A stretch of DNA of 64,000 nt from an uncultured Methylomirabilota bacterium (GCA_963705305.1 OY970067.1:992001-1056000); one strand, 5' to 3'. Positions 29,962 through 59,811 are shown, counted from the first letter of the stretch. Numbers and translations are program-made. The notes: generated by a model from the sequence alone, not told the origin.

Positions 29962-31239
29962 CTAGGCGCGGCCGGCCGAGGCCCGGTCCAGAAGCTGGCT
30001 CACGTGCTGGACCTGAACGGCCAACCCCTTCTTCCGGACCCCGTAGGACAGATGCATCATGCAGGCGGGGCACTCGGTGGCCAGGATCGTGGCGCCGGTC
30101 TTCTCCACGTTCCCCATCTTCCGGTCCAGGACCCCGGCGGCCTCGGTGTGGTGCAGGAACGTGTAGCTTCCCGCGGCGCCGCAGCACCAGTCCGATTCGG
30201 GCAGCTCCTTGTAGGTCAAGCCGGGGATGGACTTGAGGAGCTGGCGCGGCTGCGCCGTGATCTTGGAGTACCTGTTCGAAAGATGACATGGATCGTGATA
30301 GGTGACCACGCCCTCCAGCGCTGCCAGTGGACCGTTCACGCCCAGCGCTATCAGAAATTCGCTGAAGCTCTTGATCTTCCCGGACAGGGCCTCGGCCCGC
30401 TCCGCGTACGCCGGATCCCCCTTGAGCAGGCTGCCGTATTCTTTGAGATGGCTGCTGCAGCTCCCGCACTCGGACAGGATGGCGTCAAAGCCCATGGCCG
30501 GGGCGAGGCGCTCCACATTCCGCCGCGCGATGTCCCGCGCCGCATCCAGGTCGCCGTACGCATGCGCCGGCCGGCCGCAGCAGGTGTTGTTGAGGATGGT
30601 GATCGAGCAGCCCGCCCGCGCCAGCACGCGCAGCGTCGCCTCGACCACATCGGGATACTGGAAGCTCAGGCCGCAGGAGACGAAGTAGCCGATCCTGGCC
30701 TTGGACTTGGCCGGCTCGGCCCCCAGGCTCCGCTCGCCGCGTCGGAAGGGCTGCGCCGGCAGGCTGGGCACGATGTCGGCCGTCCCGTGCAGGCGCCCGT
30801 CCACCAGCTTCATGGCCCCGCTCTTCTCGGCCAGGCTGGCCAGGCCCGTCCGCTTGGCCCACACGGCCATGCGCCCGGCCCACTCCAGCTTCGTGCTGTC
30901 GGCCAGGACCGACCGGAACAAGATCCGCTGCCACATCGGCTGGCCCTGCCGGTTGAGGTAGGCATGCCGGATCGCGGTGACGATCTCGTCGGTCTTCAGG
31001 GCCGGGAAGCAGTGGGCGGTGCAGCCGCGGCAGAGGAGGCAGTCCTCCAGGGCGTGCATGACGTCCGGCGTCAGATCCAGATCGCCCAGCATCAGGCCCC
31101 GGGCAATGGCCAGGCGGCCGCGCGACAGCGAATGCTCCTCGCCCGTCACCCGGAACACCGGGCAGCCGGCCTGGCAGAAGCCGCAGTGATTGCACTTCGC
31201 GATCAGCTCGTGCAGGGGCAGCAGCTCTGGGATGGCCAT
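29962..31239 (-). CDS. glcF: Glycolate oxidase Fe-S subunit
   Basis: CNHCGFCQAGCP, CLLCRGC, CCG, YHDPCHL and CCGAAG. Confidence 0.85.
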   Translation of the reverse strand: MAIPELLPLHELIAKCNHCGFCQAGCPVFRVTGEEHSLSRGRLAIARGLMLGDLDLTPDVMHALEDCLLCRGCTAHCFPALKTDEIVTAIRHAYLNRQGQPMWQRILFRSVLADSTKLEWAGRMAVWAKRTGLASLAEKSGAMKLVDGRLHGTADIVPSLPAQPFRRGERSLGAEPAKSKARIGYFVSCGLSFQYPDVVEATLRVLARAGCSITILNNTCCGRPAHAYGDLDAARDIARRNVERLAPAMGFDAILSECGSCSSHLKEYGSLLKGDPAYAERAEALSGKIKSFSEFLIALGVNGPLAALEGVVTYHDPCHLSNRYSKITAQPRQLLKSIPGLTYKELPESDWCCGAAGSYTFLHHTEAAGVLDRKMGNVEKTGATILATECPACMMHLSYGVRKKGLAVQVQHVSQLLDRASAGRA

Positions 31240-31260
31240 TAAACTCTCCTGAGCGAATGC

Positions 31261-31350
31261 AAAACCGACAACCGACAAGTGATAACCGGTCAACGAAGAG
31301 CCGATCGGCCGGTGACTTTTCAGTTGTTCGGTTGTCGGTTGTCGGTTTTT
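31261..31350. repeat. Inverted heptamer (AACCGAC)n tandem repeats
   Basis: AAAACCGACAACCGACAA ... TTCGGTTGTCGGTTGTCGGTTTT in the glcE-glcF spacer. Confidence 0.65.
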
Positions 31351-31366
31351 CCTTTCGCCTTCCCTG

Positions 31367-32719
31367 TCAGATTCCCCCGACGAAGCGTCCCGGGCTCAGG
31401 ATGCCGGCCGGGTCGAACTCCGCCTTCAGGCGCCGCATGACGGCCAGCGCCTCCCCCGGTTTTCCCCAGGCCTCGAGGTGGCGCTTGACGGCCAGGGGGG
31501 CCGCTTCCACGACCAGGCTCCCTTCGGCCGCTTCGGCCTCGCGTCGCAAGGCCTCGATCCCATCCCGCACCAATTCCGGCGGGGTTCCGGCCGTGAGGCC
31601 GCAGGCCGCCCGGACGACCCCGCTCCCCGCATGGGCCGCGATCGCGCCGCGCCACCCGTGGCGGCGCAGCAGATCCTCCGCCCTGGCGACGAACGCAAGG
31701 GTCTGGCTGATGGGCACGCCGATCTTCAGGCTGAGCCGCTCTGCCGCTCCGACCGCCCGATCCAGAACATCGCGGATCTCGCCCCAGGCGGCCGGGCTCT
31801 GCTCCGCGGCCAGGGTCGAGGTCTTCACGGCCCGCCCCTCCACGAACACCTGGGCGAAATCGCGGACCTGCCGCGCCACGGTGGCGGGGGTGCCGGCCAG
31901 CGAGACGGCCACCCCATACCCACGCGATCCGGTCAATCCCAGACTGGCAACCCCCGCCAAGGCCGGCGCGTCCAGCAGCTCCATAGCCTCGGGCAGGAGA
32001 AACGACCCCAGGGTGCGCGTGACGACGGCCGCCGCCTGGCCGAGATCCGGAAACACCGCTGCGATCGTGGCGCGGGTTGCCGGCATCGGCAGCAGCTTGA
32101 AGGTCACCTCCGTGATGAGCCCCAGCGTCCCGAGGCTGCCGATGAACAGTTTATTCATGTCGTAGCCCGAGACGTTCTTGATCACCTTGCCCCCGCAGCG
32201 GACCCGCTCCCCGGTCGGCAGGACGACCCGCATGCCCAGCACCCAGTCGCGGGCCGTCCCGTACAGAAGCCGGCTGGGCCCGCTGGCGCTGGTTGCGATC
32301 ACCCCTCCCACCGTCCGCCGGGCCATCCCGGGCGGATCCAGCGGGAGAAATTCCCGCTCCGCCGCGAGCGCCCGCTCGAGGTCCCCGAGGCGCACCCCGG
32401 CTTCCGCCGCGACAACCAAGTTCGCCGCGTCGAATTCCACGATTCGCGCCAGTCGGTCCAGGCAGATCACGACGTCCAGCCGAGCCGGAGGATTCCCCAG
32501 CCCCACGGTCGACCCGCCGCCCCAGGGGGCGACGGCCGCCTCGGCCGACCCGCATGCCGCCACCACGGCCGCCACCTGCTCTTGCGTGCCGGGATGCACC
32601 ACGAGCTGCGGCGCGACACCGTCCACGGCATAGGCGGCAGCCTCCGGTCCGGCGGCGAGGTGCTCCCCGCCGGCGATCTCGGATACCTGCCGCTGCAGTC
32701 CCTCCAGCTCACGCAGCAT
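31367..32719 (-). CDS. glcE: Glycolate oxidase FAD-binding subunit
   Basis: LPLDPP, GGKVIKNVSGYDM.KLFIGSLGTLG and FDPAGILSPG. Confidence 0.88.
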   Translation of the reverse strand: MLRELEGLQRQVSEIAGGEHLAAGPEAAAYAVDGVAPQLVVHPGTQEQVAAVVAACGSAEAAVAPWGGGSTVGLGNPPARLDVVICLDRLARIVEFDAANLVVAAEAGVRLGDLERALAAEREFLPLDPPGMARRTVGGVIATSASGPSRLLYGTARDWVLGMRVVLPTGERVRCGGKVIKNVSGYDMNKLFIGSLGTLGLITEVTFKLLPMPATRATIAAVFPDLGQAAAVVTRTLGSFLLPEAMELLDAPALAGVASLGLTGSRGYGVAVSLAGTPATVARQVRDFAQVFVEGRAVKTSTLAAEQSPAAWGEIRDVLDRAVGAAERLSLKIGVPISQTLAFVARAEDLLRRHGWRGAIAAHAGSGVVRAACGLTAGTPPELVRDGIEALRREAEAAEGSLVVEAAPLAVKRHLEAWGKPGEALAVMRRLKAEFDPAGILSPGRFVGGI

Positions 32720-34109
32720 GAGCCACCTCCTGCGGGGCGGGGAACATCTTGCCGGGGTTGGCGAGGTTTCGGGGATCGAAGGCCTGCTTCACCTTCAGCT
32801 GAGCCCGGATATCGTCGTCGGTGAAGACGAGGCGCATGGACTCGATCTTCTCCAGGCCGACGCCGTGCTCGCCGCTGATGGTGCCCCCCAGCTCCACGCA
32901 CAGCCGGAGGATCTCCATCCCGGCCCGCATGACGCGGCCCTTCTGCTCTGCATCTCGCCAGTCGAAGAGGATCAGCGGGTGCAGGTTGCCGTCCCCGGCG
33001 TGGAACACGTTGGGGATCTGGAGGTCGTACTTCTTGCCGACCTCGGCCACCTTCTTCAGGACCGCGGGCAGGGCCGTGCGGGGGACCGTCCCGTCGCAGA
33101 CCAGGTAGCTGGGGGTGATCCGGGCCACCGCGCCGAACGCGCCGCGCCGGCCGGCCCACAGTGCGGCCCGCTCGGCCTCGTCTTTCGCCACCCGGACCTC
33201 GCGGGCCCCGTGGGCGCGGCACAGGTCGGCGATGGATTGCGCTTGCGCCTCCAGGTCATCCTCAAGCCCGTCCACCTCGATGAGGAGGACGGTCGCACAG
33301 TCCAGGGGAAAGCCGCAGGGCATCGACGCCTCCACCGCCTTGATGACCAGCTGGTCCATCATCTCCAGCGTGGCGGGGACCATGCCGGCGCCCACGATGG
33401 CCGACACCGTCTCGCTGCCCGCCTCGAGGCTATCGTAGATGGCCAGCAGCGTCTTGACCGCTTCCGGCAACCGCACAATGCGGGTCACGATCTCCGTGCA
33501 GATTCCCAGGGTCCCCTCGCTCCCCACGAAGACCCCGGTAAGATCATAGCCGGGGGCGTCCGGCGCCTTGCCGCCGGTCCGGACGATCCGGCCGTCGGGG
33601 AGGACCAGGGTAAGCCCGAGGACATGGTTCGTGGTGACGCCGTACTTGAAGCAGTGGGGGCCGCCGGAGTTTTCGGCCACGTTGCCCCCCAGCGTGGCGG
33701 CCTTCTGGCTGGCGGGATCGGGGAGATACTGGTAGCCGAGCGGTGCGAGGGCGTTGCCGAATTCCAGATTGAAATGACCCGGCTGGACGCGGGCCCGCAA
33801 ATTGGGGAGGTCCACCTCCAGGATGCGGTTCATGCGGATCATCTCCAGGACGACGCCGCCCCGGAACGGAATCGTGCCCCCCGACAGATTCGTGCCCCCG
33901 CCCCGCGGCACGAAGGGAACCCCGTGCTTGTTGCAGGCGGTGACCACCCTGGCGACCTCTTCGGTGGTGCCCACGAAGACGACCGCATCGGGGCGCCGCT
34001 CTTCCAGATAGGCGTCGTACTTGTAGAGGTGGAGATCCACGCCCGAGTCCTTGACATTCGCCTTGCCAACGATTTGTCGGAGCTCGGCCACGAGCGTTCG
34101 TGTTTCCAT
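32709..34109 (-). CDS. glcD: Glycolate oxidase subunit GlcD
   Basis: RGGGTNLSGG, PDPAS, ENSGGPHCFKYG, HAGDGNLHP and GEHGVG. Confidence 0.92.
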   Translation of the reverse strand: METRTLVAELRQIVGKANVKDSGVDLHLYKYDAYLEERRPDAVVFVGTTEEVARVVTACNKHGVPFVPRGGGTNLSGGTIPFRGGVVLEMIRMNRILEVDLPNLRARVQPGHFNLEFGNALAPLGYQYLPDPASQKAATLGGNVAENSGGPHCFKYGVTTNHVLGLTLVLPDGRIVRTGGKAPDAPGYDLTGVFVGSEGTLGICTEIVTRIVRLPEAVKTLLAIYDSLEAGSETVSAIVGAGMVPATLEMMDQLVIKAVEASMPCGFPLDCATVLLIEVDGLEDDLEAQAQSIADLCRAHGAREVRVAKDEAERAALWAGRRGAFGAVARITPSYLVCDGTVPRTALPAVLKKVAEVGKKYDLQIPNVFHAGDGNLHPLILFDWRDAEQKGRVMRAGMEILRLCVELGGTISGEHGVGLEKIESMRLVFTDDDIRAQLKVKQAFDPRNLANPGKMFPAPQEVAHAA

Positions 34110-34161
34110 GGCGTCCCTGTATCCTCCCGCCCCGGCCTCGGGGGCCAGCCGGTTCACTCCT

Positions 34162-34518
34162 TCATCGCAGGCATCTCGGGCGTGGATGTTCGCCTGTCGT
34201 TCCGCTGGCGCATTCCGGATGGCAGGCGGGCCGACCCCCGGCCACGGGAATCAGGATGGAGAGGGCGTCCCCGCTCTGCACTAGCGTCTCCAGGCCCTGC
34301 AAGGCGCGGATGTCCCGCCCGTTCAGCTCGACAAACAGGTAGGCGAGGAGGCCGCCTGTCCCCCCATCGAACAGGCGGCCCTTCAACCCGTCGTGCGCGG
34401 CCACCAGATCCTCCAGCACGGTCCGCACCGTGGCCCCCGGCGCGACGTCGAGCTGCACCGATTGCCGCCCCATGATTCGGGCCAAGTCGAACATCGTGCG
34501 GACCGTCACCGTCGGCAT
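34162..34518 (-). CDS. moaD: MoaD/ThiS ubiquitin-like protein with a 23-aa extension after GG
   Basis: LNGRDI...L.T.VQSGD...IPVAGG followed by RPACHPECASGTTGEHPRPRCLR; directly downstream of aor. Confidence 0.8.
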   Translation of the reverse strand: MPTVTVRTMFDLARIMGRQSVQLDVAPGATVRTVLEDLVAAHDGLKGRLFDGGTGGLLAYLFVELNGRDIRALQGLETLVQSGDALSILIPVAGGRPACHPECASGTTGEHPRPRCLR

Positions 34519-34541
34519 GCCGCCTCTCCTGTTGCCACCCG

Positions 34542-36410
34542 TCAGGCGCGCGGCAGATCCGCCACCAGGGCCTCCAGGCCCAGGGCCTTCAGCCGCTCCG
34601 GCGTCGGCACCCCCCGGGCGTCCCAGCCGTGCAGGCTGTAGTACTCGTCCAGCATGACGTCCCGGTCCTCCGGTGAGATGCGGTGCCCTTGAGAGGCGCC
34701 TGTCTTCAGCGGCTCCATCAGCAGGCGATCCGGCAGGGTGTCGTCCGCCCGGGTGAGCCCGGCGCGGAGGTTCCAGACCCGGGCCATGTTGGTGAGCCGC
34801 TCGCCCACCCGCACCACCTCTTCGGGGGTCACGTTGTAGCCCTGGGCCGCACGCCAGAGATCGGCGACGACCGTGGGTCCCAGGTTTTTGGGGAGGAGGG
34901 CCAGGCGGACGACGAACGTGCAAAGCATGGCGGAATCCTTGACGGAGGCTCCCACGTCCTGGTTGAAGATGGTGAGGGCGGCCTTCCCCTCGATAGCCAG
35001 GCGATCCACGGCCTGGGGCACGGGGATGCCGAACACCTCCTGCTCCGAGTGGCCGCGGGAATGGTCCGCGCCGGTATAGGCGGTCATGTAGTTGAGGCCC
35101 ATGGCCTTGAGGCCGCGGGGGTCGTAGCCCGGAAACTCCAACCCCTTGACGTGCATGGCGTACTTGGGGGCTTCTCCGCCGATGCGCTCGGCGGCCCGCT
35201 TGCTCCCTTCGGCGAGAAGGTCGCCCACTCCCTCGCGGTAGGCGATCTTCCGCAGGAGCGCGACCGCCGCCTCATGGTTGCCGAACTTGAGGTCGAGGCC
35301 GTCCACATCCCCCCGCGTGAGGATCCCCCGCTCGTACAGCTCCATGGCCATGGCCACCGTCGCCCCGAAGGAGACGGTGTCCAGCCCCAGCTCGTCACAG
35401 AGGCGGTCCATGGCGATGCAGGCGCCCATGTCCGTGATGCCCATGTCACTTCCCAGGGAGTAGAGCGACTCGAACTCGGGCCCTTCGCTGGCATAGCCGG
35501 CATACGGCCCCGAGGAGACCGCCCGCACCTGGGCGGCCAGGACGGGGCACTGGTCGCAGGCGAAGTGGCGAACCCGGAATCCGGTGCCCGCCTGGGCGCC
35601 GATGGTCAGGTACTTTTCGTCCGCCGGCTCCTGGAAGTTCAGGGCCGGCATGTCCCCTTGTTTGACGGTCAGCTCCACGTTGCCGGCCGTGCCGAAGTTC
35701 CGGAAGCGGCTGTACAGCGCCGGGCTCTCCTTCATGGCCGTATGGAGGATCTTCACCGCCTCCTTGAATGCCGCCGAGTCGGCCAGGGGTGGGACCTTCT
35801 GGCTGCCGCGCACCGCGATGGCCTTCAGGTTCTTGGCCCCCATCACCGCGCCCAGGCCCTTCCGCCCGGCGGCCCGGCGCTCGTTGATGATGGCGGCGTA
35901 CCTGACCAGGCGCTCGCCGCCCGGGCCGATGCACGCGATGCGGATGTTACCGTCGTGGAGCGCCTGCTGCATGTAGAACTGGGTATCGATGGTGTTGAGC
36001 CCCCAGTAGTCCTGGGCGTCGCGGATCTCCGCTTTGCCGTCGTCGATCCAGAGGTATGCGGGGGCCTCGGCCTTCCCCTCCACGATGACGGCCTGCACGC
36101 CGGTCGCCCGCAGCTCGTTGGGGAAAAAGCCTCCGGAGTTGGAGTAGCCCACCGTTCCCGACATCGGCGACTTTCCCACGAAGGCCACGCGGCTGGTGAC
36201 CGGCGCCGATGTCCCGGCCAGGAAGCCCAGGCTCGCGATCAGCTTGTTGTCCGGGCCCAGCGCGTCTACGCGGGGGTCCACCTCGTCGTATAGGAGCTTG
36301 ATGGCCGCGGCTGCCCCGCCCATGAACCGCCGGGACAGGGTCTCCGGGTACGGCTCCTCCGTGATCTGTTTGGTGGTAAGGTTCACCCGCAGGATCTTCC
36401 CCATGATCAT
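34542..36410 (-). CDS. aor: Tungsten-dependent aldehyde:ferredoxin oxidoreductase
   Basis: GKILRVNLT, KSP, GRKGLGAVMGAKNLKA, CDQC, GPEFES, DELGLD and YYSLHGWD. Confidence 0.92.
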   Translation of the reverse strand: MIMGKILRVNLTTKQITEEPYPETLSRRFMGGAAAAIKLLYDEVDPRVDALGPDNKLIASLGFLAGTSAPVTSRVAFVGKSPMSGTVGYSNSGGFFPNELRATGVQAVIVEGKAEAPAYLWIDDGKAEIRDAQDYWGLNTIDTQFYMQQALHDGNIRIACIGPGGERLVRYAAIINERRAAGRKGLGAVMGAKNLKAIAVRGSQKVPPLADSAAFKEAVKILHTAMKESPALYSRFRNFGTAGNVELTVKQGDMPALNFQEPADEKYLTIGAQAGTGFRVRHFACDQCPVLAAQVRAVSSGPYAGYASEGPEFESLYSLGSDMGITDMGACIAMDRLCDELGLDTVSFGATVAMAMELYERGILTRGDVDGLDLKFGNHEAAVALLRKIAYREGVGDLLAEGSKRAAERIGGEAPKYAMHVKGLEFPGYDPRGLKAMGLNYMTAYTGADHSRGHSEQEVFGIPVPQAVDRLAIEGKAALTIFNQDVGASVKDSAMLCTFVVRLALLPKNLGPTVVADLWRAAQGYNVTPEEVVRVGERLTNMARVWNLRAGLTRADDTLPDRLLMEPLKTGASQGHRISPEDRDVMLDEYYSLHGWDARGVPTPERLKALGLEALVADLPRA

Positions 36411-36844
36411 GGTACGTCCTCCTTTTCTCTCGCCCCCGGCCGCCTTCCCGGCCGCGGGACGCTGCCCTGCCTACTCTCGCGCAGGTTGCGCCTCGGCTCG
36501 TGCTGTTACCGATTCGCACCAGACGCCCGATCGGACACCCCACTGTCTTTTCACGGAGTTATCGCAAAACGCCATCTCCTTCGCCAACGGCAGGCGGAAG
36601 GCAAACATCGTCCCCCGGGACACCCGGGTTGCGCTCCCAATCTACATTCTCTCTCTGCAAGGAGGTATACGTCCCGCAGGTCAAGATCGTCAAGTGAATC
36701 GTTTCGCCCGCATCCCGCCCGAGCGCCCGTGCCGGTGAGGGGGGCAATGCAGGGCCCTCCCGGCTGCACCATATCTGTCAGGACACGATCAGAGCGGTGC
36801 CGGGGGACGGGCGGCCCGTCCCCCGGCTCGGCCGACCTACCAGC

Positions 36845-38656
36845 TCATGGAACAGGCGGGATCGGGATCATGCCCGGGAACACATACGCCTGCAGGAAAC
36901 AGATCAGGCCGATCACCGCGGCACCAGCGACGGAATGCCAGAAGACCGTGCGGAAGATCGGCCCCATGGCGTGCGACCGCTCGTAGGGATCGTCGTAGCA
37001 GGCGGCGCAGGCGACCATGATGGACTGAGGGTCGATCATCTTGCCCATGACCCCGCCGGTGGAGTTCGTGGCGGAGATCAGGACCTCGTTCAGGTGCAGC
37101 TGCTGCGCGGTGATCCGCTGCAGGTTGCCGAACAGCGCGTTCGAGGCGGTGTCGGAGCCGGTGAGGAAGACCCCCAGCCAGCCAAGGTAGGCCGAGAAGA
37201 ACGGATACAGGGGGCCGGCGGCGGTGAAGGCCAGGCCGATCACGGCGTCGGTCCCGGAGTAGCGGGTGAGGAACCCGAGCCCGAGCACCTGCGCGATGAC
37301 CAGAATCGGGATCCCCAAGCGGCGGGCGGTCCGGGTGATGGACTGACCCCACTGGGCTGGGTTCAATTTCAAGACGAGGCCGGAAATGAGGGCGGCAACG
37401 AACACACCCGTACCGGCCGCGGAGAGCCAGTTGATGGCAAACACAGCCGCCTCTGGCTTGGCGTTCAGTGGAGCCACCGGTGGCATTCGCTCGACCAGAT
37501 TATGGAGCGCTGGCATCTGCCACACTGGCAGCGAGAGGGAGCCGGCGAAGGTGGAGCCGAGGAGGGTGGTCTTGAAGGTGATCCCGGAGAAGAGGCCATT
37601 CAGGTACGCCTTCCACTGGGGCATGCCCCAGATGGCACAGCAGACGATGAGGATGCCCCAGGGCACCCAGGCGTAGGCCGTCTGCCCGGCGGTGTATGGA
37701 TATTTCCACTCGCTGCTGTCGGTGGTCACCGTCTCCGTCTTTTTGCCGGCCTTTGCCAGGGCCTCCCGCTCGGACCGCAACAGGAACCGGGTCTTGGGGT
37801 GCCAGACGAAGCGGAGGAACAGCGCCGTGCAGATGACGGAGAAGACGCCCGCGACCACATCCGTCATCAGGTGGAACTCGTTGGTCTGGGACGCAATGAA
37901 CTGCATGACGGCGAAAGAGCAGCCGGACATCAGCGTTCCCGGCCACACCTCCCACGCCTCCTTCCACGTTCCCCCTTCCATCAAGACGAAGGCTGTCACC
38001 AGCCAGAACGGGACCAGGATGGACACCCAGGGGAGCTGCCGGCCCACCATGGAGGACAGGGTGAGCTGGTCGAGGCCGGTCACGGTCGCGAGCATCACGA
38101 TGGGGGTGCCGATGGCCCCGAAGGCGACCGGGGCGGTGTTGGCCAGCAGGTTCAGGACGGCCGACTGGAAGGGCGAGAAGCCGAGGCCCACCATCACGGC
38201 GCCGGCGATGGCCACCGGCGTCCCGAAGCCCGACGTGCCCTCGATGATGGCCCCGAAGGAGAAGGCGATCAGGAGAACCTGGAGGCGCCGGTCGAACGAG
38301 ATGTGAATGATGGACTCCTTCACGATCTCGAACTTCCCGGAGATCAGGGTCATATTGTAGAGAAATATGGCCCCGATGATGATCCAGATGATCGCCAGGA
38401 AGCCCGACAGGGCGCCGTACGAGAAGGCGGAGAAGGCCGACACGAATGGCATCCTGAAGGCCAGGGTGGTTACCACGAAGGCGGCCAGAACGCCGTAGAA
38501 CGCGGCATACGGAGCGCTGATACCGAGATGTCTCCCCCCTTGCTTGTCCCGGTGGGGGTGCAGGGCGATGAAATACAGAAGGGTCAGAATTGGGATGGCG
38601 GCCACAATCGTCGAGAGGAAGGCGTTGCCGAATGGGTTGTAGTTCTGATGATACAT
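36845..38656 (-). CDS. lctP: L-lactate/glycolate permease (LctP/GlcA family)
   Basis: DRRLQVLLIAFSFG..EG.SGFGTP, ANTAPVAFG, GSDTASN and GKMIDPQSI. Confidence 0.92.
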   Translation of the reverse strand: MYHQNYNPFGNAFLSTIVAAIPILTLLYFIALHPHRDKQGGRHLGISAPYAAFYGVLAAFVVTTLAFRMPFVSAFSAFSYGALSGFLAIIWIIIGAIFLYNMTLISGKFEIVKESIIHISFDRRLQVLLIAFSFGAIIEGTSGFGTPVAIAGAVMVGLGFSPFQSAVLNLLANTAPVAFGAIGTPIVMLATVTGLDQLTLSSMVGRQLPWVSILVPFWLVTAFVLMEGGTWKEAWEVWPGTLMSGCSFAVMQFIASQTNEFHLMTDVVAGVFSVICTALFLRFVWHPKTRFLLRSEREALAKAGKKTETVTTDSSEWKYPYTAGQTAYAWVPWGILIVCCAIWGMPQWKAYLNGLFSGITFKTTLLGSTFAGSLSLPVWQMPALHNLVERMPPVAPLNAKPEAAVFAINWLSAAGTGVFVAALISGLVLKLNPAQWGQSITRTARRLGIPILVIAQVLGLGFLTRYSGTDAVIGLAFTAAGPLYPFFSAYLGWLGVFLTGSDTASNALFGNLQRITAQQLHLNEVLISATNSTGGVMGKMIDPQSIMVACAACYDDPYERSHAMGPIFRTVFWHSVAGAAVIGLICFLQAYVFPGMIPIPPVP

Positions 38657-41775: not shown

Positions 41776-41997
41776 GGCGGGCCTCCTGCGGCGCCCTGCC
41801 CCTCCCGTCGGGGCGACGGGAGGGGCGGCGAGAACAGGAACGTCACAGCCTCTTGGATGAGGCTCGCAAACCGCGGGATGCGGAAGGCGGACGCATCCGC
41901 GCGAAAATCCGAACAGAGCCGGGGCGCGCCGAAGGTCTCTTTCCCATTCCCGGGAAGCCTCCCGGCGCGCACCGGTCTTGGCGCGGGCAGGGGGCCG

Positions 41998-49349: not shown

Positions 49350-49393
49350 CCCGCCGGGGCTTCGAGATCTGCGGCCCCGACGGGACCGGCGAG

Positions 49394-50911: not shown

Positions 50912-50945
50912 TTCCGGATGACTCCTTTCCTTTCACCCGCTCAGG

Positions 50946-51428
50946 TCAGAACCGGAGGATCTGAGCCCCGAACATCCCCATGGGCATTGGGATGAGGAAG
51001 ATCTTTTCAAACAGCCACCAGAACACGAGGGGAATGGGAATGCTGACGAGCAACACGGTTCTCCACCGGAATTGGCCGACCCAGCGGATGTATCCTATCA
51101 GGTAGATCATCGCCGCCACGTAGAGTCCGACCACCTCGGTCAGAAGGACCATCCCGCAGGCCGGGATGAAGACCGTGAGGACCGGCTTCATTCCCCCGGG
51201 GGGGACGAAGCGCTTCTCGCCCTTCACCGACGAGGTCCCCTTGGTGGCCTGCCGCATGATGATGAGGCAGCCGCCCACGACCAGGACGGCCATCAGCATC
51301 GGGAAGAACCCGGCCTGGGGTCCGTCGGCCCCCCAGCCGGCCCCCAGCTGGTAGGAATCCCAGCCCACCACCAGGCCGAGGGCTAAGAGGATCGCCGCCA
51401 CCAGAAGATCCGCCGACTTATTAGTCAT
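50946..51428 (-). CDS. tctB: Tripartite tricarboxylate transporter small subunit
   Basis: GP.AGFFP; four TM helices; lies between tctC and tctA. Confidence 0.88.
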   Translation of the reverse strand: MTNKSADLLVAAILLALGLVVGWDSYQLGAGWGADGPQAGFFPMLMAVLVVGGCLIIMRQATKGTSSVKGEKRFVPPGGMKPVLTVFIPACGMVLLTEVVGLYVAAMIYLIGYIRWVGQFRWRTVLLVSIPIPLVFWWLFEKIFLIPMPMGMFGAQILRF

Positions 51429-51536
51429 TACTGCTCCTTCCTTGCCGACAAACTCACGATGGGCTGCTCCGATCTCAGAAGGAGTCCCCGGGAAGAAACG
51501 GCCCTCCTCCCCGGGGCTCCAAGCCGCCGCCCTCAG

Positions 51537-52538: not shown

Positions 52539-52885
52539 GTCCTTCCTCCTTATGCCCGCCGCGACTTATGACATTAATTTGGGCGACCGCTCCCGGGCCC
52601 GCGGCGGCGCCCAGGATTTCGAGGGCCCCTCACCATCCCTTATATCTCGACCCTGACACCCGGCATGACCCTCCACGCCGAGCGTACGGGAGGTTGCCGA
52701 TTGTTGCCGCCGGAAGAAGGCATCTTGCTATCCGCCACCAGCGATTCACGATCTTCCGTTGTGAATCCCTCCACCGGCAGCCCCGTTGCCAGGGGGACTG
52801 CGATGAGATTTATGCCCTCAGGGGCCACGAGCCGCCTCGGGGGGTCAAGCAAACACTTGAGGGAATGATTAGGAGGCGGCGCGCC

Positions 52886-53347
52886 CTAGCAGAGCCGAGA
52901 GGAATCCCATGCCGGGTCGGGGACCTCCCGGCCCGCGGAGGATGCTTCCCGGAAGAGACAGGATCGAGATAGGGTTCGAATGTGTTCGGAGGCGAATGGC
53001 TTTGCGGTGCACGCTTGGGTGCATGGCGGTGATTTGGGAGCGGTCGGCAGGCGCAGCGACTGGCGGGCGAGGCGTGGTGAGGTCGGCGGCGGTGGAGGGT
53101 CACCGGGCCGGCCGAGCATCCGGATCTGGGCGAGCTCTGCCTCCCCCCCCGTCGGACTCTCGGCCACAGGGGTGCTGGGATCCGAGTCGTCCAGATCCAG
53201 GAGATCCTGTGGCGTCACGCTGCCCAGCAGAAAGATGGCGAACAGGACGGCGCCCCACAACACCCACGACCGTCGTTTGAGCTCCGCACTGAAATGCACT
53301 GCGACGCTCCAAGACGAGGGGGCCGTGCCCGTCTCGCCCTTCCGCAC
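52886..53347 (-). CDS. Small membrane protein (DLLDLDDS ... DPA), paralog of 38846-39232
   Basis: TM segment, then DLLDLDDS, then an Arg-rich tail with PDPA near the end. Confidence 0.5.
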   Translation of the reverse strand: MRKGETGTAPSSWSVAVHFSAELKRRSWVLWGAVLFAIFLLGSVTPQDLLDLDDSDPSTPVAESPTGGEAELAQIRMLGRPGDPPPPPTSPRLARQSLRLPTAPKSPPCTQACTAKPFASEHIRTLSRSCLFREASSAGREVPDPAWDSSRLC

Positions 53348-53571
53348 GGTCCGTCAGCCGGTCGGGCGATCGAGCACGGCGGGAGTTTTCAGGCTTCTCC
53401 GGCCGCTCGGCGCTCTTGCTGCAAAATCAGTCTAGCAAACACTGACGCGTGAACGCAAGGCTCGATGGGGTGCGGGGCGGGGGAGAATGTCCGCATCCTC
53501 CCCCGCCCCGCCGTTTTCTCTTCATGCCGCGCGCTTCGATGCGTGCCGCGCCGCATGTGTGCCGATCGACG

Positions 53572-54597
<1,026 letters not shown>

Positions 54598-54630
54598 TCA
54601 GGCCTTCACGTGATCTGCCATCCTGGCCGG

Positions 54631-55821
54631 CTACTCCTTCTCGAAGCCGACCCAGTGCGTCCGCTTGCAGGCCTTGCCGTCCTTGGCGGCCTTGGCCAGA
54701 TGCTTCGCCATGTACTCGAAGTGCTCGATCTCCACGACCTCGCCGCCCAGGCCGGCCATGAAGGAGGTCACCACCGGCCGCTTCGGCTGGTCGTACAGGG
54801 AGGTGCACACCTCGAACATCAGGCCGCCGCCCATGGTGGCGCCGCCGAACGAGGTCTGGGTCTCGACCACGCCCACTGCCTTCACCTTGCTGAGGGCCGC
54901 GGCCACCGCCTCGGTCGGCCAGGGGCGCACGAACCGGAGCTTGGCCATGCCGATCTTCACCCCCTGCTTCCGCAGCTTCTGGATAGCGGAGCGGGCGGTC
55001 GACGCATGCGCGCCCTGGATGAAGATGGCGTACTCGGCGTCGTCCAGCATGTACTCCTCGACGAAGGGGGAGTACTTCCGGCCGAAGATCCGGCTGAAGT
55101 CATCCAGGGCCTCCTTGATGACGGCCGGGACCGCCATCATGGCCTGTGCCCGCGCCAGCTCCAGGGCGTCGCCCTGGTCGGGGCGGATCTGGGGGCTGTG
55201 CGAGATGGGCTTCTTGGGATCCAGCCGGTGGTCCATCTTGAGGGGGGGCAGGAACTCGTCCACCTGCTTCTGGTCCGGCAGAACCACCTTGCCCGGGATG
55301 TGGGAGACGAAGTAGCCGTCCTGGCAGACGAACTGCGGCAGGTAGATCCGCGGGTCCTCGCCCACCCGGTAGTTGATCAGGTGGTTGTCGAAGGCCTCCT
55401 GCGGGTCCTCGGCCCAGCCCATGAGCCAGCCCATGTCGCGGGCGCAGAAGATGTCCGTGTGCTCCGACCCGAAATCGCCGGGCGGATCCAGGGTCCGGTC
55501 GGCCACCATCATCTGCAACGGCAGGCGGGCGCCGGCGATGGGGGAATAGACCTCGTACGCGTAGGTGCAGCCCACACCGGAGCTTCCGGTGAAGGCCCGG
55601 GCGCCGCAGGCCGAGGCGCCGTACACGACCGAAAGCTGCGCGTGCTCGCCCTCGGCATGCACGAACTCGGCGTCCAGCTCGCCATTCGCCACCAGCTTCG
55701 CCAGCTCCATCATCACCGCCGTGTAGGGGCGGATGGGATAAGAACTGATCACCTCAACCTTGGCGTACTTGGCCGCCTGGGCCGAGGCTGCGCATCCGCT
55801 GATCATCACTTCCTTCGCCAT
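54631..55821 (-). CDS. oorA: Oxalate oxidoreductase alpha subunit
   Basis: YPIRPYT (Arg in place of Thr of PFOR YPITP), EGEHAQLSVVYGAS and DRTLDPPGDFG. Confidence 0.87.
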   Translation of the reverse strand: MAKEVMISGCAASAQAAKYAKVEVISSYPIRPYTAVMMELAKLVANGELDAEFVHAEGEHAQLSVVYGASACGARAFTGSSGVGCTYAYEVYSPIAGARLPLQMMVADRTLDPPGDFGSEHTDIFCARDMGWLMGWAEDPQEAFDNHLINYRVGEDPRIYLPQFVCQDGYFVSHIPGKVVLPDQKQVDEFLPPLKMDHRLDPKKPISHSPQIRPDQGDALELARAQAMMAVPAVIKEALDDFSRIFGRKYSPFVEEYMLDDAEYAIFIQGAHASTARSAIQKLRKQGVKIGMAKLRFVRPWPTEAVAAALSKVKAVGVVETQTSFGGATMGGGLMFEVCTSLYDQPKRPVVTSFMAGLGGEVVEIEHFEYMAKHLAKAAKDGKACKRTHWVGFEKE

Positions 55822-55832
55822 GGTTTCCCTCC

Positions 55833-56159
55833 TTAGAACGGCTTCTCAAGTCGGACGACGCCATCCTCGAAATCCAGCTCGTGGGCCTTGGAGAGCGCCC
55901 CGTGTGTGCACTCGGCGACGCAGATCAGGCAGCCCTTGCAGTACTCGGCGTTCCACTCAACCTCCGTCCCTTCCTCGTTCAACTGCCAGCAGGCATCGGG
56001 ACAGTAGGCCACGCAGCTCAGGCACAGGTTGCACTCCTCCCGGTTGATGACCGGGCGGTAGATGCGCCAGTTGCCCGTGATCATCATGCGCTGCTCTTTC
56101 ACCGGCGCCGGCGTGCAGCCGGCGAACGGCACCCGCTTTTGCTCCAGAATTACGAACAT
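55833..56159 (-). CDS. 2x[4Fe-4S] ferredoxin-like (delta) subunit of the oxalate oxidoreductase
   Basis: TGNWR..RP; CNLCLSCVAYCP and CKGCLICVAEC. Confidence 0.85.
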   Translation of the reverse strand: MFVILEQKRVPFAGCTPAPVKEQRMMITGNWRIYRPVINREECNLCLSCVAYCPDACWQLNEEGTEVEWNAEYCKGCLICVAECTHGALSKAHELDFEDGVVRLEKPF

Positions 56160-56189
56160 AACCTATCCTCCTTTGGAAGAACGTGGGCC

Positions 56190-56798
56190 CTAGTTGAGGG
56201 TCTTCACCACGGCCTGCTCGTAGCCGCGCTTCAACGCTTCCTTGTTCGCGACCACCTGCTCCAGGCTGCCCAGCTTCACCAGGCCGGTGCCCTTGGCCAG
56301 GGCGCCCAGGATCGGGGCCGCCACGCCGGCGCCCAGAGAGGTGGCGTCAATGCCGCCCTCGGTTCCGGAGAAGTCGATGGTGCTCGAGCCGGCGATCCCG
56401 TCGGCATCCACGCACACGAGCGCCTTGAGCAAGTTCTTGTTGGGAACGAACTTCAGGATGTCCTCCGGCTTCCGGTTGGTGTTGACCACCAGGACGCCGC
56501 CCTTGGCCATCCCGAGCAGGACGTTCATCCCCTTCACGATGGCGTCGGTGACCAGCACCACCACCTCGGGATGCTTGTTCTCGTACTCGTAGCGCATCTC
56601 GATCTCTGCGTCGCTGATGCGCGCGTATTTCCGGACGGGGACGTTGACGCGGTCCGGAAGGTCCACGTAGTTGTCGAAGGCCTGGACGAATTTCCCTTCC
56701 TTCGCCCCGGCCAGGGCCAAGCCATTGGCGACGTCCCGGCCTTCCTTGTCCTTGACGACCCCCGATGTCCACACCGTAATTTCACGTACCTGAGCCAT
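56190..56798 (-). CDS. Gamma-type subunit of the oxalate oxidoreductase
   Basis: GKFVQAFDNYVDLPDRV.VP..KYARIS and LVVNT. Confidence 0.85.
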   Translation of the reverse strand: MAQVREITVWTSGVVKDKEGRDVANGLALAGAKEGKFVQAFDNYVDLPDRVNVPVRKYARISDAEIEMRYEYENKHPEVVVLVTDAIVKGMNVLLGMAKGGVLVVNTNRKPEDILKFVPNKNLLKALVCVDADGIAGSSTIDFSGTEGGIDATSLGAGVAAPILGALAKGTGLVKLGSLEQVVANKEALKRGYEQAVVKTLN

Positions 56799-56842
56799 AC
56801 TCGCCTCCTTTGGCAGGACTGTAGCGAAAAAGCGCCGGTCCC

Positions 56843-59038
56843 CTACACGACAGAATTCCCGCGCCTCACCTCCCTCTCCAGGGCCCGCGTCCCGGGCCGC
56901 GTGGACTCGACCGTACTTGCCACCTGTGCCTGGGCGTCCTGCATGTGCCGCCAGGCAACGCGGAAGGCCGCAGCCGGCCCGAGCCGTTGTTCCTCCAGTG
57001 CCAGGATGGCCGCCTTCTTACACAAAAGCTCCAGGTCGGCCCCGGTCCACCCCGGCGTAATTTCGGCGATGCGCGCCAAACTGATATCCGTTTCGAGCGG
57101 CATGCCGTCCGTGTAGATCCCGAGGATCTCGCGCCGCTCCGCCTCGGTGGGAAGCGGCAGCTCCAGCACGTAATCGAAACGGCCGGCGCGCAAAAGCGCC
57201 GGCTCCAGCAAATCCGGCCGGTTGGTCGCCCCGATGACCATCAGCCCCAGCGAGCCGTGCAGATCGTCCAGCTCGCGGAAGAGCTGGCTGACCAGGCGCG
57301 GGAAGTGACTCCCGGCCTCGTGCATGGACCGGGCCGGCGCCAGCGCCTCGATCTCGTCGAAGAAGACAATGCAGGGGGAGGCCTGCTTGGCCCGCTTGAA
57401 GACCTCGTGGAGCCCCTTCTCCGACTCGCCCACCCACTTGGAGAGCAGGCTGGGCTGATCCACCGTGATGAGGGTGAGCGCCAGGTCCCCGGCCAGGGCG
57501 CGGGCCAGCATCGTCTTGCCCGTTCCCGACGGGCCGGTCAGCAGGATCCCCTTGGGCGGGTTGAAGCGCGCCTGGGCCGAGATGGCGCCTCCCTGCCGCA
57601 TCAGCTCCAGAATGGTGCGGAGGGTGCGCTTGGTCTCGGCGAGCCCGCCGACGTCCTTCAGGGTGATCCGGGGCCGCTCGGCCAGGAATTCCCGGGTGGC
57701 GGTGGGCTCCACCATCTTGAAGGCCTCCAGGAAATCCTGCTGCGTGATTTGCACGGTCTCGGCGGCCAGCGTCGGCTTTTCCTCGCCCACCTCGAACCGG
57801 ATCTGCGGGATGAGCCGGCGCAGGGCCACCATGCCCGCCTCCTTGCAGAGGACGGCCAGGTCCGCGCCGACGTAGCCGTGGGTGAACTTGGCGATCTCTT
57901 CCAGGTCCACGTCCGCGGCCAGCGGCATGCGCTTGGAATGGATGCCCAGGATCTGGCGCCGGGCGACGAGGTTCGGAACACCGATGCTGATCTCGCGATC
58001 GAAGCGGCCGGGGCGGCGCAGAGCCGGATCCAAAAGCTCGGGCATGTTGGTGGCCCCGATCACGACCACCTCGCCGCGCTCCACCAGGCCGTCCATCAGG
58101 GCCAGGAGCTGGGCCACCACGCGCTTCTCCACGTCCCCGACGACCTGGGAGCGCTTGGGCGCCACCGCGTCCATCTCGTCCAGGAAGATGATGCTGGGGG
58201 CGTTGCGCCGGGCCTCCTCGAACACCTGGCGGAGCTTGGCCTCGCTCTCGCCGTAGTACTTGTGGATGACCTCCGGCCCGCTCACGTGGATGAAGTGTGC
58301 CCGCACCTCGTTGGAAATGGCCCGGGCGATCAGGGTCTTCCCCGTGCCCGGGGGGCCGACCAGGAGCACCCCCTTGGGAGGATCGATCCCCAGCAGGCCG
58401 AAGATCTCCGGCAGCTTCAAGGGCAGCTCGATCATCTCCCGCACCAGCCGGAGCTCGCGATCCAGACCGCCGATGTCCTCGTACGAGACCCGGTAGGCCC
58501 GGTCGCCCGAGACGTCGGGGGCCCGGAAGGAAATAACCGTCTCCTCGTTGATCAGGATCGCGCCGCGGGGCGAGGCCCCCTCGACCGTGAAGGATCGGGG
58601 CCTTGACCCGAGGAATGTCACCTGCAGGTTGTCGCCGAGGACAACGGGGATTCCGGAGAGGAGGTGGCGGAGGTGGGGAACCTCCTCTTCCTTGGGCATC
58701 GGCAGGCCGGCCTGGACGGGGGACAGAAGCAGCGAGGTCGCGGGCTTGAAGGGGACCTTGCGGACGGTGGACCACTCGTCGATGCCGATCTGGGCGTTGG
58801 CCCGCGTGGTCCCGTCGATCATGATGATCTGCTGCCCCCGGTGGGTGGGGGGCAGCTCGGCCGCCCGGGCCACGGTCGAGCGGCGGCCCGTGATCATCAG
58901 GACGTCCCCCGGGAAGGCGTGCAGCCGCACGAGATCGTCCGTGTCCAGGCGGGCCATCCCCTTGCCCACGTCGTCCGTGAAGGCTTCCTGCACGCGGTAC
59001 TGCAGGCCGCTGGCGCTGGTGGTGGCTGGTTCGGTCAC
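56843..59038 (-). CDS. CDC48/p97/VAT-family double AAA+ ATPase
   Basis: N-domain (DVGKGMARL); D1 YEDIGGL, GPPGTGKT, DEMD and RRPGRFD; D2 GPSGTGKT, KWVGESE and FFDEIE. Confidence 0.92.
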   Translation of the reverse strand: MTEPATTSASGLQYRVQEAFTDDVGKGMARLDTDDLVRLHAFPGDVLMITGRRSTVARAAELPPTHRGQQIIMIDGTTRANAQIGIDEWSTVRKVPFKPATSLLLSPVQAGLPMPKEEEVPHLRHLLSGIPVVLGDNLQVTFLGSRPRSFTVEGASPRGAILINEETVISFRAPDVSGDRAYRVSYEDIGGLDRELRLVREMIELPLKLPEIFGLLGIDPPKGVLLVGPPGTGKTLIARAISNEVRAHFIHVSGPEVIHKYYGESEAKLRQVFEEARRNAPSIIFLDEMDAVAPKRSQVVGDVEKRVVAQLLALMDGLVERGEVVVIGATNMPELLDPALRRPGRFDREISIGVPNLVARRQILGIHSKRMPLAADVDLEEIAKFTHGYVGADLAVLCKEAGMVALRRLIPQIRFEVGEEKPTLAAETVQITQQDFLEAFKMVEPTATREFLAERPRITLKDVGGLAETKRTLRTILELMRQGGAISAQARFNPPKGILLTGPSGTGKTMLARALAGDLALTLITVDQPSLLSKWVGESEKGLHEVFKRAKQASPCIVFFDEIEALAPARSMHEAGSHFPRLVSQLFRELDDLHGSLGLMVIGATNRPDLLEPALLRAGRFDYVLELPLPTEAERREILGIYTDGMPLETDISLARIAEITPGWTGADLELLCKKAAILALEEQRLGPAAAFRVAWRHMQDAQAQVASTVESTRPGTRALEREVRRGNSVV

Positions 59039-59811
59039 GCGCCCACTCCCGCCGCCGGCTGGCCGTCAGCTTTCAGGGCCGGCGCCTCCTTTTCCCGCGA
59101 GGCGAAGACCAGCCGCTCCATCTCTTCCAGATGTTCGTACATCCGCTGCTCGGCCCCCTCGGCATCGCCCTTCTCGATGGCGCGGAGTATGGCCCGGTGG
59201 TTCCGGAGCGACCGGCCCGGCCGGTCGTTCAGCTGCACCGACGCCTCTCGCGTCTCGCGCAGCATATCCATGAGATTGGTCATGATCTGGAACAGCACCT
59301 CGTTCCCGGCGGCCTCTGTCAGCCGGAAATGAAAATCGGTGTCCGCCTTGAGCCCGGTCTTCCCGTCCGCAACGTCGGCCTCCTGCCGGGCCAGGGCCTC
59401 CCGCATGCGCTCTACCTGCTCGGGCGTGGCCCGGAGCGCCGCAAACGCGGCCAGGTCGGGCTCGATCACCCGGCGAACCTCGAAGAGCTTTCGCTGGTTG
59501 CGCCAGAACTGAAGCAGGCTGGCGGCAATGGCACCGTTTGGATGGCTGCCCGTGCCGTCGGCGAGAAAGGTTCCTTCCCCCGGCCGCGTGTCGACCATCC
59601 CGAGGGACTCCATGGACCGAATCGCTTCCCGCACCGTCGATCGGCCCACCCCCAGCGTCTGGGCCAGCTCGCGCTCGGCGGGCAGGCGATCACCCGGCTT
59701 CAGTCCTCCCGAGGTGATCAATTCCCTCACCTGGTCGATGATTTCCTCCGATGCTCTGGTCTTGCGAACGGCGCGGAAGGCCTTGTGACTCACGGATTTG
59801 ATGGTCGCCAT
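59035..59811 (-). CDS. GntR/FadR-family transcriptional regulator
   Basis: LKPGDRLPAERELAQ.LGVGRSTVREA; FCD domain with D..FH and H..I. Confidence 0.93.
   Translation of the reverse strand: MATIKSVSHKAFRAVRKTRASEEIIDQVRELITSGGLKPGDRLPAERELAQTLGVGRSTVREAIRSMESLGMVDTRPGEGTFLADGTGSHPNGAIAASLLQFWRNQRKLFEVRRVIEPDLAAFAALRATPEQVERMREALARQEADVADGKTGLKADTDFHFRLTEAAGNEVLFQIMTNLMDMLRETREASVQLNDRPGRSLRNHRAILRAIEKGDAEGAEQRMYEHLEEMERLVFASREKEAPALKADGQPAAGVGA

Follow-up and report, generated by a model that had tools for sequence, protein, structure and literature searches.

The window analyzed here is a 64,000-nucleotide stretch (C1:992001-1056000; OY970067.1) of the one-contig, 5.65 Mb, 98.9% complete genome (G000) of an uncultured Methylomirabilota bacterium (GCA_963705305.1). 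Two groups of genes within it are the subject of this study, a putative glycolate/lactate unit (unit 1, 26982-38656) that contains a gene for an aldehyde:ferredoxin oxidoreductase (AOR) and a putative oxalate oxidoreductase (OOR) unit (unit 2, 49394-59856). The window has a G+C content of 62-70% and carries nearly every gene on the minus strand, including all of those described below for the two units. Unit 1 starts, in the direction of transcription, with an LctP-family lactate/glycolate permease of 603 aa (36845-38656, minus strand), recognized by PF02652 (E 5e-138) and TIGR00795 (452.2 against a cut-off of 341.15), for which the L-lactate permease and GlcA equivalog models both scored under their cut-offs. 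It is followed by the AOR gene (34542-36410, minus strand), which encodes a catalytic subunit only, 622 aa long and of the class I tungsten oxidoreductase (WOR) type, with matches to AFOR_N (E 3e-74) and AFOR_C (E 5e-123) over the full length of each domain, and by a MoaD/ThiS-like protein of the WorX type of 118 aa (34162-34518, minus strand; TIGR01687, 49.8 against 49.5; SAMP1, 60.5 against 60). Directly downstream lie a GlcD-like FAD subunit of a glycolate (2-hydroxyacid) dehydrogenase (32709-34157, minus strand; TIGR00387, 506 bits, below the cut-off of 567.9), a GlcE-like FAD subunit (31367-32719, minus strand; NF008439, 166.5 bits, below 284) and a GlcF-like iron-sulfur (Fe-S)/CCG subunit (29962-31293, minus strand; CCG and Fer4_8 domains; NF008434, 165.4, below 333). 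The GlcDEF architecture of two FAD-linked oxidase homologues and an Fe-S/CCG protein is therefore present with all three NCBIfam equivalog scores under their cut-offs, and the GlcF-like protein scored higher with the LdhH model than with the GlcF model. The unit closes with lutABC (26982-29859, minus strand), encoding Fe-S proteins of L-lactate oxidation: lutA (29119-29859), lutB (27680-29122) and the lutC open reading frame (ORF; 26982-27833). LutB exceeded its equivalog cut-off (TIGR00273, 448.3 against 444.8) and has CCG (LutA) and LUD (LutC) partners, and its start at 29122 is preceded by a ribosome-binding site.

The genes of unit 1 are packed as in an operon, given gaps of 23 bp between AOR and MoaD, 4 bp between MoaD and GlcD and -11 bp between GlcD and GlcE, and of -11 to 102 bp overall from AOR through LutB; we infer operon status from this packing. 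Upstream of AOR is a gap of 434 bp, in which no Moco riboswitch was detected, and no Rfam family matched at its gathering score anywhere in the window. The promoter and terminator scan of the window gave no signal (one promoter-like site against 0.9 expected, and seven terminator-like sites against 4.8 +/- 2.2 expected). All nine copies of the MoaD/ThiS-like protein that were compared (window, L099, L101, L103, L118, L119, L121, L128 and L130) end in PVAGG plus a variable tail of 1-23 residues, the window copy carrying 23 residues with three cysteines after the GG, so that processing would have to free the diglycine end.

The closest solved structures to the window AOR are all strict-sense AORs, namely 1AOR, the P. 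furiosus AOR (PfAOR; 443.5 bits over residues 4-612), 9MQX (410), 9G7J (408) and 8C0Z (387), with formaldehyde oxidoreductase next at 319 bits, and its own structure was predicted with a pLDDT of 95.1. Class I tungsten oxidoreductases are described as a WorL catalytic subunit with an adjacent gene for a ThiS-like WorX protein (PMC13328260), and the window AOR, a lone catalytic subunit with a ThiS-like neighbor, fits this class. It would carry a tungsten-pterin cofactor, oxidize aldehydes and pass the electrons to ferredoxin. With 12 AFOR_C matches, the genome holds an unusually large set of tungsten/molybdenum AOR-family genes.

Orthologues of the window AOR at 87-88% identity occur in 5/20 genomes of the same genus (G002, G007, G013, G018 and G020), all other AOR matches among the 61 genomes searched being at most 45% identical; across the phylum the clade is confined to 6/251 genomes and to 1/68 genera. 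(The unpublished genomes G028 and G055 count in denominators only.) In a large protein collection the clade comprises 27 clusters at 82-91% identity, and its next relatives reach at most 56%. Residues were compared across these 27 clade proteins, 93 relatives at 51-56% identity and 71 more distant homologues, and across the clade loci that cover a given position.

In PfAOR the second-shell residues are given as Thr243, Glu313, Tyr427 and His448, and Tyr452 as an active-site tyrosine (PMC12096430). The four second-shell positions (T241, E314, Y429 and H450 in the window AOR) are invariant in 27/27 clade proteins, whereas the position of Tyr452 is occupied by histidine (His454) in all 27, compared with tyrosine in 92/93 near relatives. 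The cluster ligands of PfAOR, which we take to be Cys288, Cys291, Cys295 and Cys494 in a numbering that agrees with the alignment to 1AOR, are altered at one position: the third cysteine (Cys295; Ala292 in the window) is alanine in 25/27 clade proteins, glycine in one (P0020) and cysteine in one (P0025), and is Ala, Gly or Ser in 26/26 clade loci that cover it, against Cys in 93/93 near relatives and 71/71 distant homologues. The four-cysteine ligation of the [4Fe-4S] cluster found in PfAOR is thus missing from nearly all of the clade. A new cysteine, Cys331, stands at the position of Pf Ile330 in 26/27 clade proteins and 26/26 loci, and in 0/93 and 0/71 of the comparison sequences. The paired loss and gain suggest a relocated Fe-S ligand, in which Cys331 may replace the lost cysteine, and P0025, which carries both, is a possible intermediate. 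Further basic residues of the clade, Arg235, Arg237, Lys491 and Arg502, adjoin active-site or cluster motifs in the sequence; because position 452 and the arginine positions vary in the wider family, these basic residues are given little weight.

Altered cluster ligation has precedent within the AOR family, in that P. furiosus WOR4 is described as having one cysteine replaced by glycine and an Fe3S4 cluster, and WOR5/ASOR as having three cysteines and one aspartate (PMC12096430). In contrast to both, the clade makes up for its lost cysteine with a new one placed 39 residues further on, and it keeps all four second-shell residues; WOR4 is also reported in that account to have lost the conserved tyrosine and to show no aldehyde activity. 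The window AOR accordingly resembles PfAOR in its best structural match, both AFOR domains and its retained second shell, and departs from it in the missing third Fe-S cysteine, in the new cysteine at Pf Ile330 and in the histidine at Pf Tyr452. Unlike PfAOR, which has been linked to peptide fermentation, it sits in what appears to be a glycolate/glyoxylate operon. The clade is, then, an apparently undescribed, genus-restricted group of AORs with altered cluster ligation and an altered active site, apparently wired into that operon.

To place the gene in its surroundings we scored neighbors by tblastn around 27 clade loci, comprising the window, the five loci of the relatives' genomes and 21 metagenome contigs (84-90% identity), with flanks of 0 to ~10 kb per side. 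MoaD directly follows AOR in all 23 loci where the sequence continues. The most constant neighbor beyond it is glyoxylate carboligase (Gcl). Of the 15 loci whose sequence runs on for at least 2.1 kb past MoaD, 11 carry Gcl within that stretch (one of the 11, L119, with only an N-terminal remnant), and its start is present in two shorter loci as well. An IclR/BhcR-like regulator flanks 14/27 loci, lying at most 1.9 kb upstream in nine and at most 0.9 kb downstream in five, and GlcF ends at most 354 bp upstream of AOR in five loci. Gene order varies while the partners stay constant: IclR-AOR-MoaD-Gcl; GlcDEF-AOR-MoaD-IclR-Gcl-aminotransferase with LctP-LutABC divergent; AOR-MoaD-Gcl-LctP-LutABC; and, in the window, LctP followed by AOR-MoaD-GlcDEF-LutABC. 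As a control, Gcl, GlcDEF, LctP, LutABC and OOR were near none of 61 loci of more distant AORs (at most 60% identity). The connection of the AOR with glycolate and glyoxylate, that is, with two-carbon (C2) metabolism, which a sequence-only reading of the window had proposed, is borne out by these neighbors.

That AOR-MoaD is an optional insert follows from one relative, G019, whose contig C84 carries GlcDEF-IclR-Gcl-aminotransferase with no AOR-MoaD and only 450 bp at the module's place. AOR-MoaD is an optional module inserted in a conserved cluster of GlcDEF, an IclR-type regulator, Gcl and an aminotransferase. GlcDEF and Gcl lie at most 4 kb apart in G019 and G005 and are linked also in G020, L129 and L130, though not in the window. 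GlcD orthologues (at least 83% identity) are present in 5/5 relatives with the AOR, and so in all six AOR-bearing genomes, versus 5/15 relatives that lack it, two more of the 15 holding partial copies; Gcl exceeded its cut-off in 3/5 relatives with the AOR and 9/15 without. Two side observations concern these surveys. In L099 (G013:C8), LctP, LutB and Gcl are each present in two pieces or as a shortened ORF, reflecting frameshifts or assembly errors. A different recurrent pairing appears in many loci of distant AORs (33-41% identity; from Clostridia, Spirochaetota, Neomoorella and other groups), where AOR has a D-2-hydroxyacid dehydrogenase next to it or a few kb away (L057, L059, L066, L067, L069, L072-L074, L086, L094, L097 and several of L152-L193), the two directly adjoining in about half of these.

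The sequence-only reading had argued that glyoxylate made by GlcDEF lacks its usual sinks in the window, and had named glcB or gcl encoded elsewhere as what would speak against its proposal. Its observation that neither malate synthase nor Gcl is encoded in the window stands, and malate synthase (PF01274) and isocitrate lyase (PF00463) have no match in the whole genome. The premise of a missing sink fails nevertheless, since a gcl-like gene is encoded elsewhere in two copies (C1:1544222-1545940 and C1:5027403-5029124, 85% identical to each other and both outside the window). Both homologues exceeded the NF008431 cut-off (807.1 and 806.4 against 791), and they scored 591 bits to E. coli Gcl versus 313 bits to the nearest acetolactate synthase. 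The second copy has an IclR/BhcR-like regulator on one side and, on the other, an AGXT/BhcA-like aminotransferase (458 bits, under its cut-off of 650); a tartronate-semialdehyde reductase is over its cut-off in the genome (411.7 against 340.75), and 15 HpcH/HpaI-family matches could include glyoxylate-using lyases. Directly upstream of the first Gcl copy, behind a GntR regulator, is an AOR paralogue 40% identical to the window AOR (G000:C1:1544222-1548307, L024). We rejected this pairing as independent support because the paralogue's orthologues in four relatives (70-87% identity) share none of these neighbors; a fifth locus that was checked gave a 43% match only, and the pairing looks specific to this genome.

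E. coli and Pseudomonas use glycolate through GlcDEF and the glycerate pathway, in which Gcl is followed by tartronate-semialdehyde reductase. The genome examined here resembles them in having a three-subunit dehydrogenase, an LctP/GlcA-family permease, Gcl homologues and tartronate-semialdehyde reductase, with GlcDEF and Gcl clustered in its relatives. It differs in the absence of malate synthase, in GlcD/E/F scores under the equivalog cut-offs, in a Gcl that carries the canonical glutamate, in an AGXT/BhcA-like aminotransferase and an optional tungsten AOR within the cluster, and in lutABC joined to the operon.

Unit 2 is headed by a GntR/FCD regulator (59035-59856, minus strand; GntR and FCD domains) and a CDC48-like double AAA+ ATPase (56843-59038, minus strand; TIGR01243, 758 bits, below the cut-off of 802.65), followed by four ORFs for OOR (53572-56798, minus strand): gamma-like (56190-56798), ferredoxin-like delta (55833-56159), alpha (54631-55821) and beta (53572-54546). 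A tripartite carboxylate transporter, TctC, TctB and TctA (49394-52538, minus strand; PF03401, PF07331 and PF01970), lies downstream. The NCBIfam cut-offs were exceeded by alpha (NF045791, 566.6 against 500), beta (NF045792, 597.6 against 590) and the gamma-like subunit (NF045790, 242.8 against 230). The alpha subunit aligns without gaps to M. thermoacetica OOR alpha (5C4I; 508 bits over residues 3-394), compared with 229.5 bits for the next solved relative, and carries YPIRP at residues 28-32 (Arg31), Arg109 and Asp116 in the same numbering as 5C4I, so that this OOR is of the YPIRP type, as the sequence-only reading had it. Arg31 is described as an oxalate-binding residue of the unique YPIRP motif, acting with Asp116 in a bait-and-switch mechanism (PMC5020499). 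The window OOR would thus be expected to oxidize oxalate to two CO2 without coenzyme A (CoA), and its assignment is well supported. Apart from OOR no oxalate route turned up in the genome, and oxalyl-CoA decarboxylase was not found (best score 187 against a cut-off of 739). Unlike the three-subunit enzyme of Moorella, it has domains III and V on separate ORFs of 202 and 108 aa, a split shared by 7/7 relatives, and its operon also includes the AAA ATPase, the GntR regulator and TctCBA; the description of the Moorella OOR in PMC5020499 mentions no partner like the ATPase.

The sequence-only reading had placed this cluster about 17 kb from AOR, and the measured gap, between position 36410, where AOR starts, and position 53572, where OOR beta ends, is 17.2 kb; the functional link that it drew from this nearness did not hold up. 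In seven same-genus genomes, picked from the 14 whose OOR alpha exceeded its cut-off and compared by tblastn (E 1e-15 or better), the order CDC48-OORgamma-delta-alpha-beta is found in 7/7, GntR lies upstream in 5/7, with the remaining two contigs ending before that point, and TctC(BA) directly follows OOR beta in 5/7. At the same threshold, AOR, LctP, GlcDEF, LutABC and PFOR (pyruvate:ferredoxin oxidoreductase) were found in none of the seven OOR regions, and OOR alpha was not found in the flanks (0 to ~10 kb per side) of the other 26 clade AOR loci; in G020, OOR lies on contig C6 and AOR on contig C1, so that the spacing in the window is not conserved. Co-occurrence, which that reading had put forward as a check, carried no information, since OOR occurs almost throughout the genus: its alpha subunit exceeded the cut-off in 14/20 same-genus genomes, namely 4/5 relatives with the AOR versus 10/15 without.

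Several observations were made on OOR alongside this comparison. The motif of OOR alpha is YPIRP in 6/7 relatives and YPIKP in one, G020 (L110, G020:C6), which has lysine in place of the oxalate-binding Arg31. The CDC48-like ATPase gene immediately precedes those of OOR both in the window and in 7/7 relatives (L110-L116), and its product may serve in maturation or unfolding. A second YPIRP-type oxidoreductase locus (G000:C1:605000-614100; L026:7070-16076) has alpha at 419 bits and beta at 342 bits, both under the OOR cut-offs, and is equipped with a GntR regulator of its own and a pair of OxlT-like oxalate/formate antiporters (467.5 and 458.9, each against 335). Both YPIRP-type loci appear suited to oxalate imported from the surroundings. 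Matches to OOR alpha under the cut-off, at ~404-426 bits, occur in other families of the order.

With moderate confidence, we favor the reading that the span consists of two separate units and that the AOR acts on an aldehyde of the C2 pathway. Every substrate, and ferredoxin as the acceptor, we infer in what follows. Unit 1 would be a hydroxy-acid catabolic operon of the LctP permease and then AOR-MoaD-GlcDEF-LutABC, in which GlcDEF would convert glycolate to glyoxylate, as the linkage of GlcDEF to Gcl supports, and LutABC would oxidize L-lactate. Glyoxylate would be consumed mainly by Gcl, from the two copies elsewhere in the genome, alongside tartronate-semialdehyde reductase and the AGXT-type aminotransferase. 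AOR-MoaD would be a mobile, optional two-gene module of the glycolate/glyoxylate cluster, confined to one genus, whose AOR would oxidize a small pathway aldehyde to the acid and pass two electrons to ferredoxin, while MoaD probably serves cofactor synthesis. Unit 2 (GntR, AAA ATPase, OOR and TctCBA) would be an operon in its own right that takes up external oxalate and oxidizes it. Of the sequence-only reading there remain the gene identities, which domain and family scores confirm for the LctP permease, AOR, MoaD, glcDEF and the OOR cluster, and the role of AOR in C2 acid metabolism; the missing sink and the nearness of OOR fall away as arguments for an oxalate route. Beside the genes it named stand lutABC directly after glcF, a fusion dehydrogenase, PFOR between the clusters and the sub-threshold GlcD/E/F scores.

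Several observations weigh against this reading. Because GlcD, GlcE and GlcF are all below the glycolate oxidase cut-offs, D-lactate could be a substrate of GlcDEF. The Gcl homologues scored 651 with TIGR01504, under its cut-off of 711.2, and 6/6 of those compared (two from the genome and those of G020, L121, L124 and L130) read RHEEGA where E. coli Gcl (8I05) reads RHVEGA. The homologues of the genus (L024:9162-10940, L025:9376-11124, L101:11905-13653, L121, L124 and L130) thus keep the canonical thiamine-activating glutamate, whereas Kaplun et al. are said to have described E. coli Gcl in 2008 as an enzyme without the canonical active-site glutamate. By sequence the homologues are far nearer to Gcl than to any other solved protein, but for these two reasons their exact reaction is not certain. 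Gcl is missing from the vicinity of AOR in four informative loci out of 15 (window, G007, L118 and L128), and G007, G018 and G002 have unrelated neighbors around AOR. All 27 clade loci come from close kin (84-91% identity), some perhaps from one population, so that shared ancestry inflates the synteny counts, which are descriptive and not statistics. Finally, OOR or a partial OOR match is present in all six AOR-bearing genomes, a pattern that fits a route through oxalate as well as it fits chance.

Which aldehyde the AOR would oxidize was weighed among several candidates. It may be an anaerobic counterpart of E. coli AldA, converting glycolaldehyde or lactaldehyde derived from sugars, sugar acids or diols to glycolate or lactate for GlcDEF and LutABC, a role that we hold to be possible though not probable. 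A single enzyme property would then account for both the lactate and the glycolate neighbors, in keeping with the tightly spaced window order of permease, AOR, MoaD, GlcDEF and LutABC, with LctP-LutABC adjoining AOR in the window, G013, G020 and L130, and with GlcD orthologues in every AOR-bearing genome. LacI regulators and sugar ABC transporters recur beside the module, a split transketolase and alcohol dehydrogenases flank it in G018 and L118, and the usual AOR substrates are described as small neutral aldehydes (PMC13328260). In at least six loci, however, the module directly precedes Gcl with GlcDEF not nearby, which would leave steps 1 and 3 without step 2, and no gene producing glycolaldehyde or lactaldehyde was identified beside the module. 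This alternative is at least as likely as the conversion of glyoxylate to oxalate that the sequence-only reading had preferred, with the AOR as a glyoxylate:ferredoxin oxidoreductase and OOR carrying oxalate on to two CO2, in what would form with GlcDEF a CoA-free, ferredoxin-reducing branch parallel to assimilation through Gcl. We rate that proposal as rather doubtful, and the branch would be one beside Gcl, not a substitute for a missing sink. The AOR does stand at the glyoxylate node, in IclR-AOR-MoaD-Gcl and GlcDEF-AOR-MoaD-IclR-Gcl operons, and it is reasonable for one operon to join two consumers of glyoxylate that serve energy and carbon, respectively. Among NCBIfam models the regulator scores highest with BhcR, KdgR, IclR and AllR, without reaching the cut-off of any, and is presumably glyoxylate-responsive, as we assume from the ligands of BhcR and AllR. 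OOR is well supported as the sole oxalate route found and is over its alpha cut-off in 5/6 AOR-bearing genomes, with a partial match in the sixth, and the clade has gained His454 at the position of Pf Tyr452 along with Arg235, Arg237, Lys491 and Arg502. Calculated from free energies of formation, the oxalate/glyoxylate couple lies at ~-0.46 V, low enough for ferredoxin, and the glyoxylate/glycolate couple at ~-0.09 V, so that ferredoxin could take electrons from the oxidation of glyoxylate and not from that of glycolate. Against the proposal stand the false premise of a missing sink, the presence of OOR in 10/15 genomes without the AOR, with its own regulator and transporter and not found in the flanks (up to ~10 kb) of the other 26 loci, and the variability of position 452 and the arginine positions in the wider family, which makes the basic residues weak evidence. 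Glyoxylate is, moreover, almost wholly hydrated in water, and the literature searched yielded no report of an AOR acting on it.

The adjacency of AOR, MoaD and Gcl, in that order in most informative loci and classic for enzymes that handle each other's products, would be met directly if the AOR acted on products of Gcl, oxidizing tartronate semialdehyde to tartronate, or formaldehyde released from a hydroxymethyl-thiamine intermediate to formate. The removal of aldehydes that arise from 2-keto acids is described as a presumed task of AORs (PMC13328260), and the difference of the homologues from E. coli Gcl at the canonical glutamate could change side reactions. We nevertheless consider this quite improbable, given that tartronate has no evident onward route here, that the genome has an ordinary tartronate-semialdehyde reductase, that the module is optional where Gcl is not (G019:C84) and that the window module does not adjoin a Gcl. 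It is also conceivable, and in our view very improbable, that the AOR is a general aldehyde-detoxifying enzyme whose neighbors reflect common descent in one genus and not function. Most class I tungsten oxidoreductases with a known role are described as detoxifying aldehydes (PMC13328260), the genome has its 12 AFOR_C matches, the neighbors in G007, G018 and G002 are unrelated and the clade loci are all closely related; yet the partners persist through at least four gene orders, none of the 61 outgroup loci has them, and the clade is nested among genomes with a GlcD orthologue (5/5 versus 5/15). A substrate outside the candidates listed here we consider unlikely. A further possibility, that an oxidoreductase of the genome itself attacks glyoxylate directly, arises because archaeal 2-oxoacid oxidoreductases are described as using glyoxylate as well as pyruvate (PMC13768988). 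A literature search from which most subscription-journal papers lay outside found no link of an AOR to glycolaldehyde, to glyoxylate/oxalate or to Gcl, nor of Methylomirabilales to glycolate.

Our favored reading, two units with an AOR acting on a C2 aldehyde, bears on a family in which only five of 92 tungsten oxidoreductase clades are stated in a 2026 classification to have a defined physiological role (PMC13328260). The clade AOR stands out in that its neighborhood points to one pathway, that of glycolate/glyoxylate, and it offers a natural comparison of close relatives with and without the module, while the substrates to consider are few. Having lost one Fe-S cysteine and gained another, the clade also gives a chance to test how cluster ligation tunes these enzymes. 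The hosts of the clade are uncultured soil and sediment bacteria of one genus, and since glycolate and oxalate are common from plants, algae and fungi, the findings bear on how such bacteria live on small organic acids. An oxalate branch, if true, would be a new anaerobic route of C2 oxidation that yields low-potential electrons while the Gcl share of glyoxylate goes to biomass; no AOR before this one would have had a role assigned in the breakdown of C2 acids, and no OOR an internal supply of oxalate. The full proposition, a clade of glyoxylate:ferredoxin oxidoreductases that have exchanged an Fe-S ligand, have a modified active site and work with GlcDEF and OOR, seems to us dubious.

Other genes lie around and between the two units. 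Downstream of lutABC is an FAD-oxidase/Fe-S/CCG fusion dehydrogenase of 957 aa, Dld-II- or YdiJ-like (23778-26651, minus strand), for which every equivalog model scored under its cut-off, and an HAO-family-like multihaem cytochrome lies near the lactate genes (22052-23524). A full-length PFOR of 1200 aa (42999-46601, minus strand; TIGR02176, 1868.2 against 911.35) stands between unit 1 and the OOR unit, with TerC, NAD epimerase-like and thioredoxin-like proteins encoded between TctCBA and PFOR in the direction of transcription. Three genes occupy 39371-43002 on the 3' side of PFOR, the first encoding a dihydroorotate-dehydrogenase-like protein (PRK07565, 491.8 against 303), the second a protein whose N-terminal half resembles subunit I of cytochrome bd and is fused to a c-type cytochrome domain, and the third a 363-aa ORF matching no family; the ORFs at 39371-40462 and 38846-39232 both have no family match. 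Beyond the OOR operon, 60113-64000 holds a multihaem cytochrome, downstream of it an MtrB/PioB-type outer-membrane porin, and an SDR between the porin and the operon. The OOR operon is flanked by SDR and MtrB in G020 too, and by SDR alone in G014 and G019.

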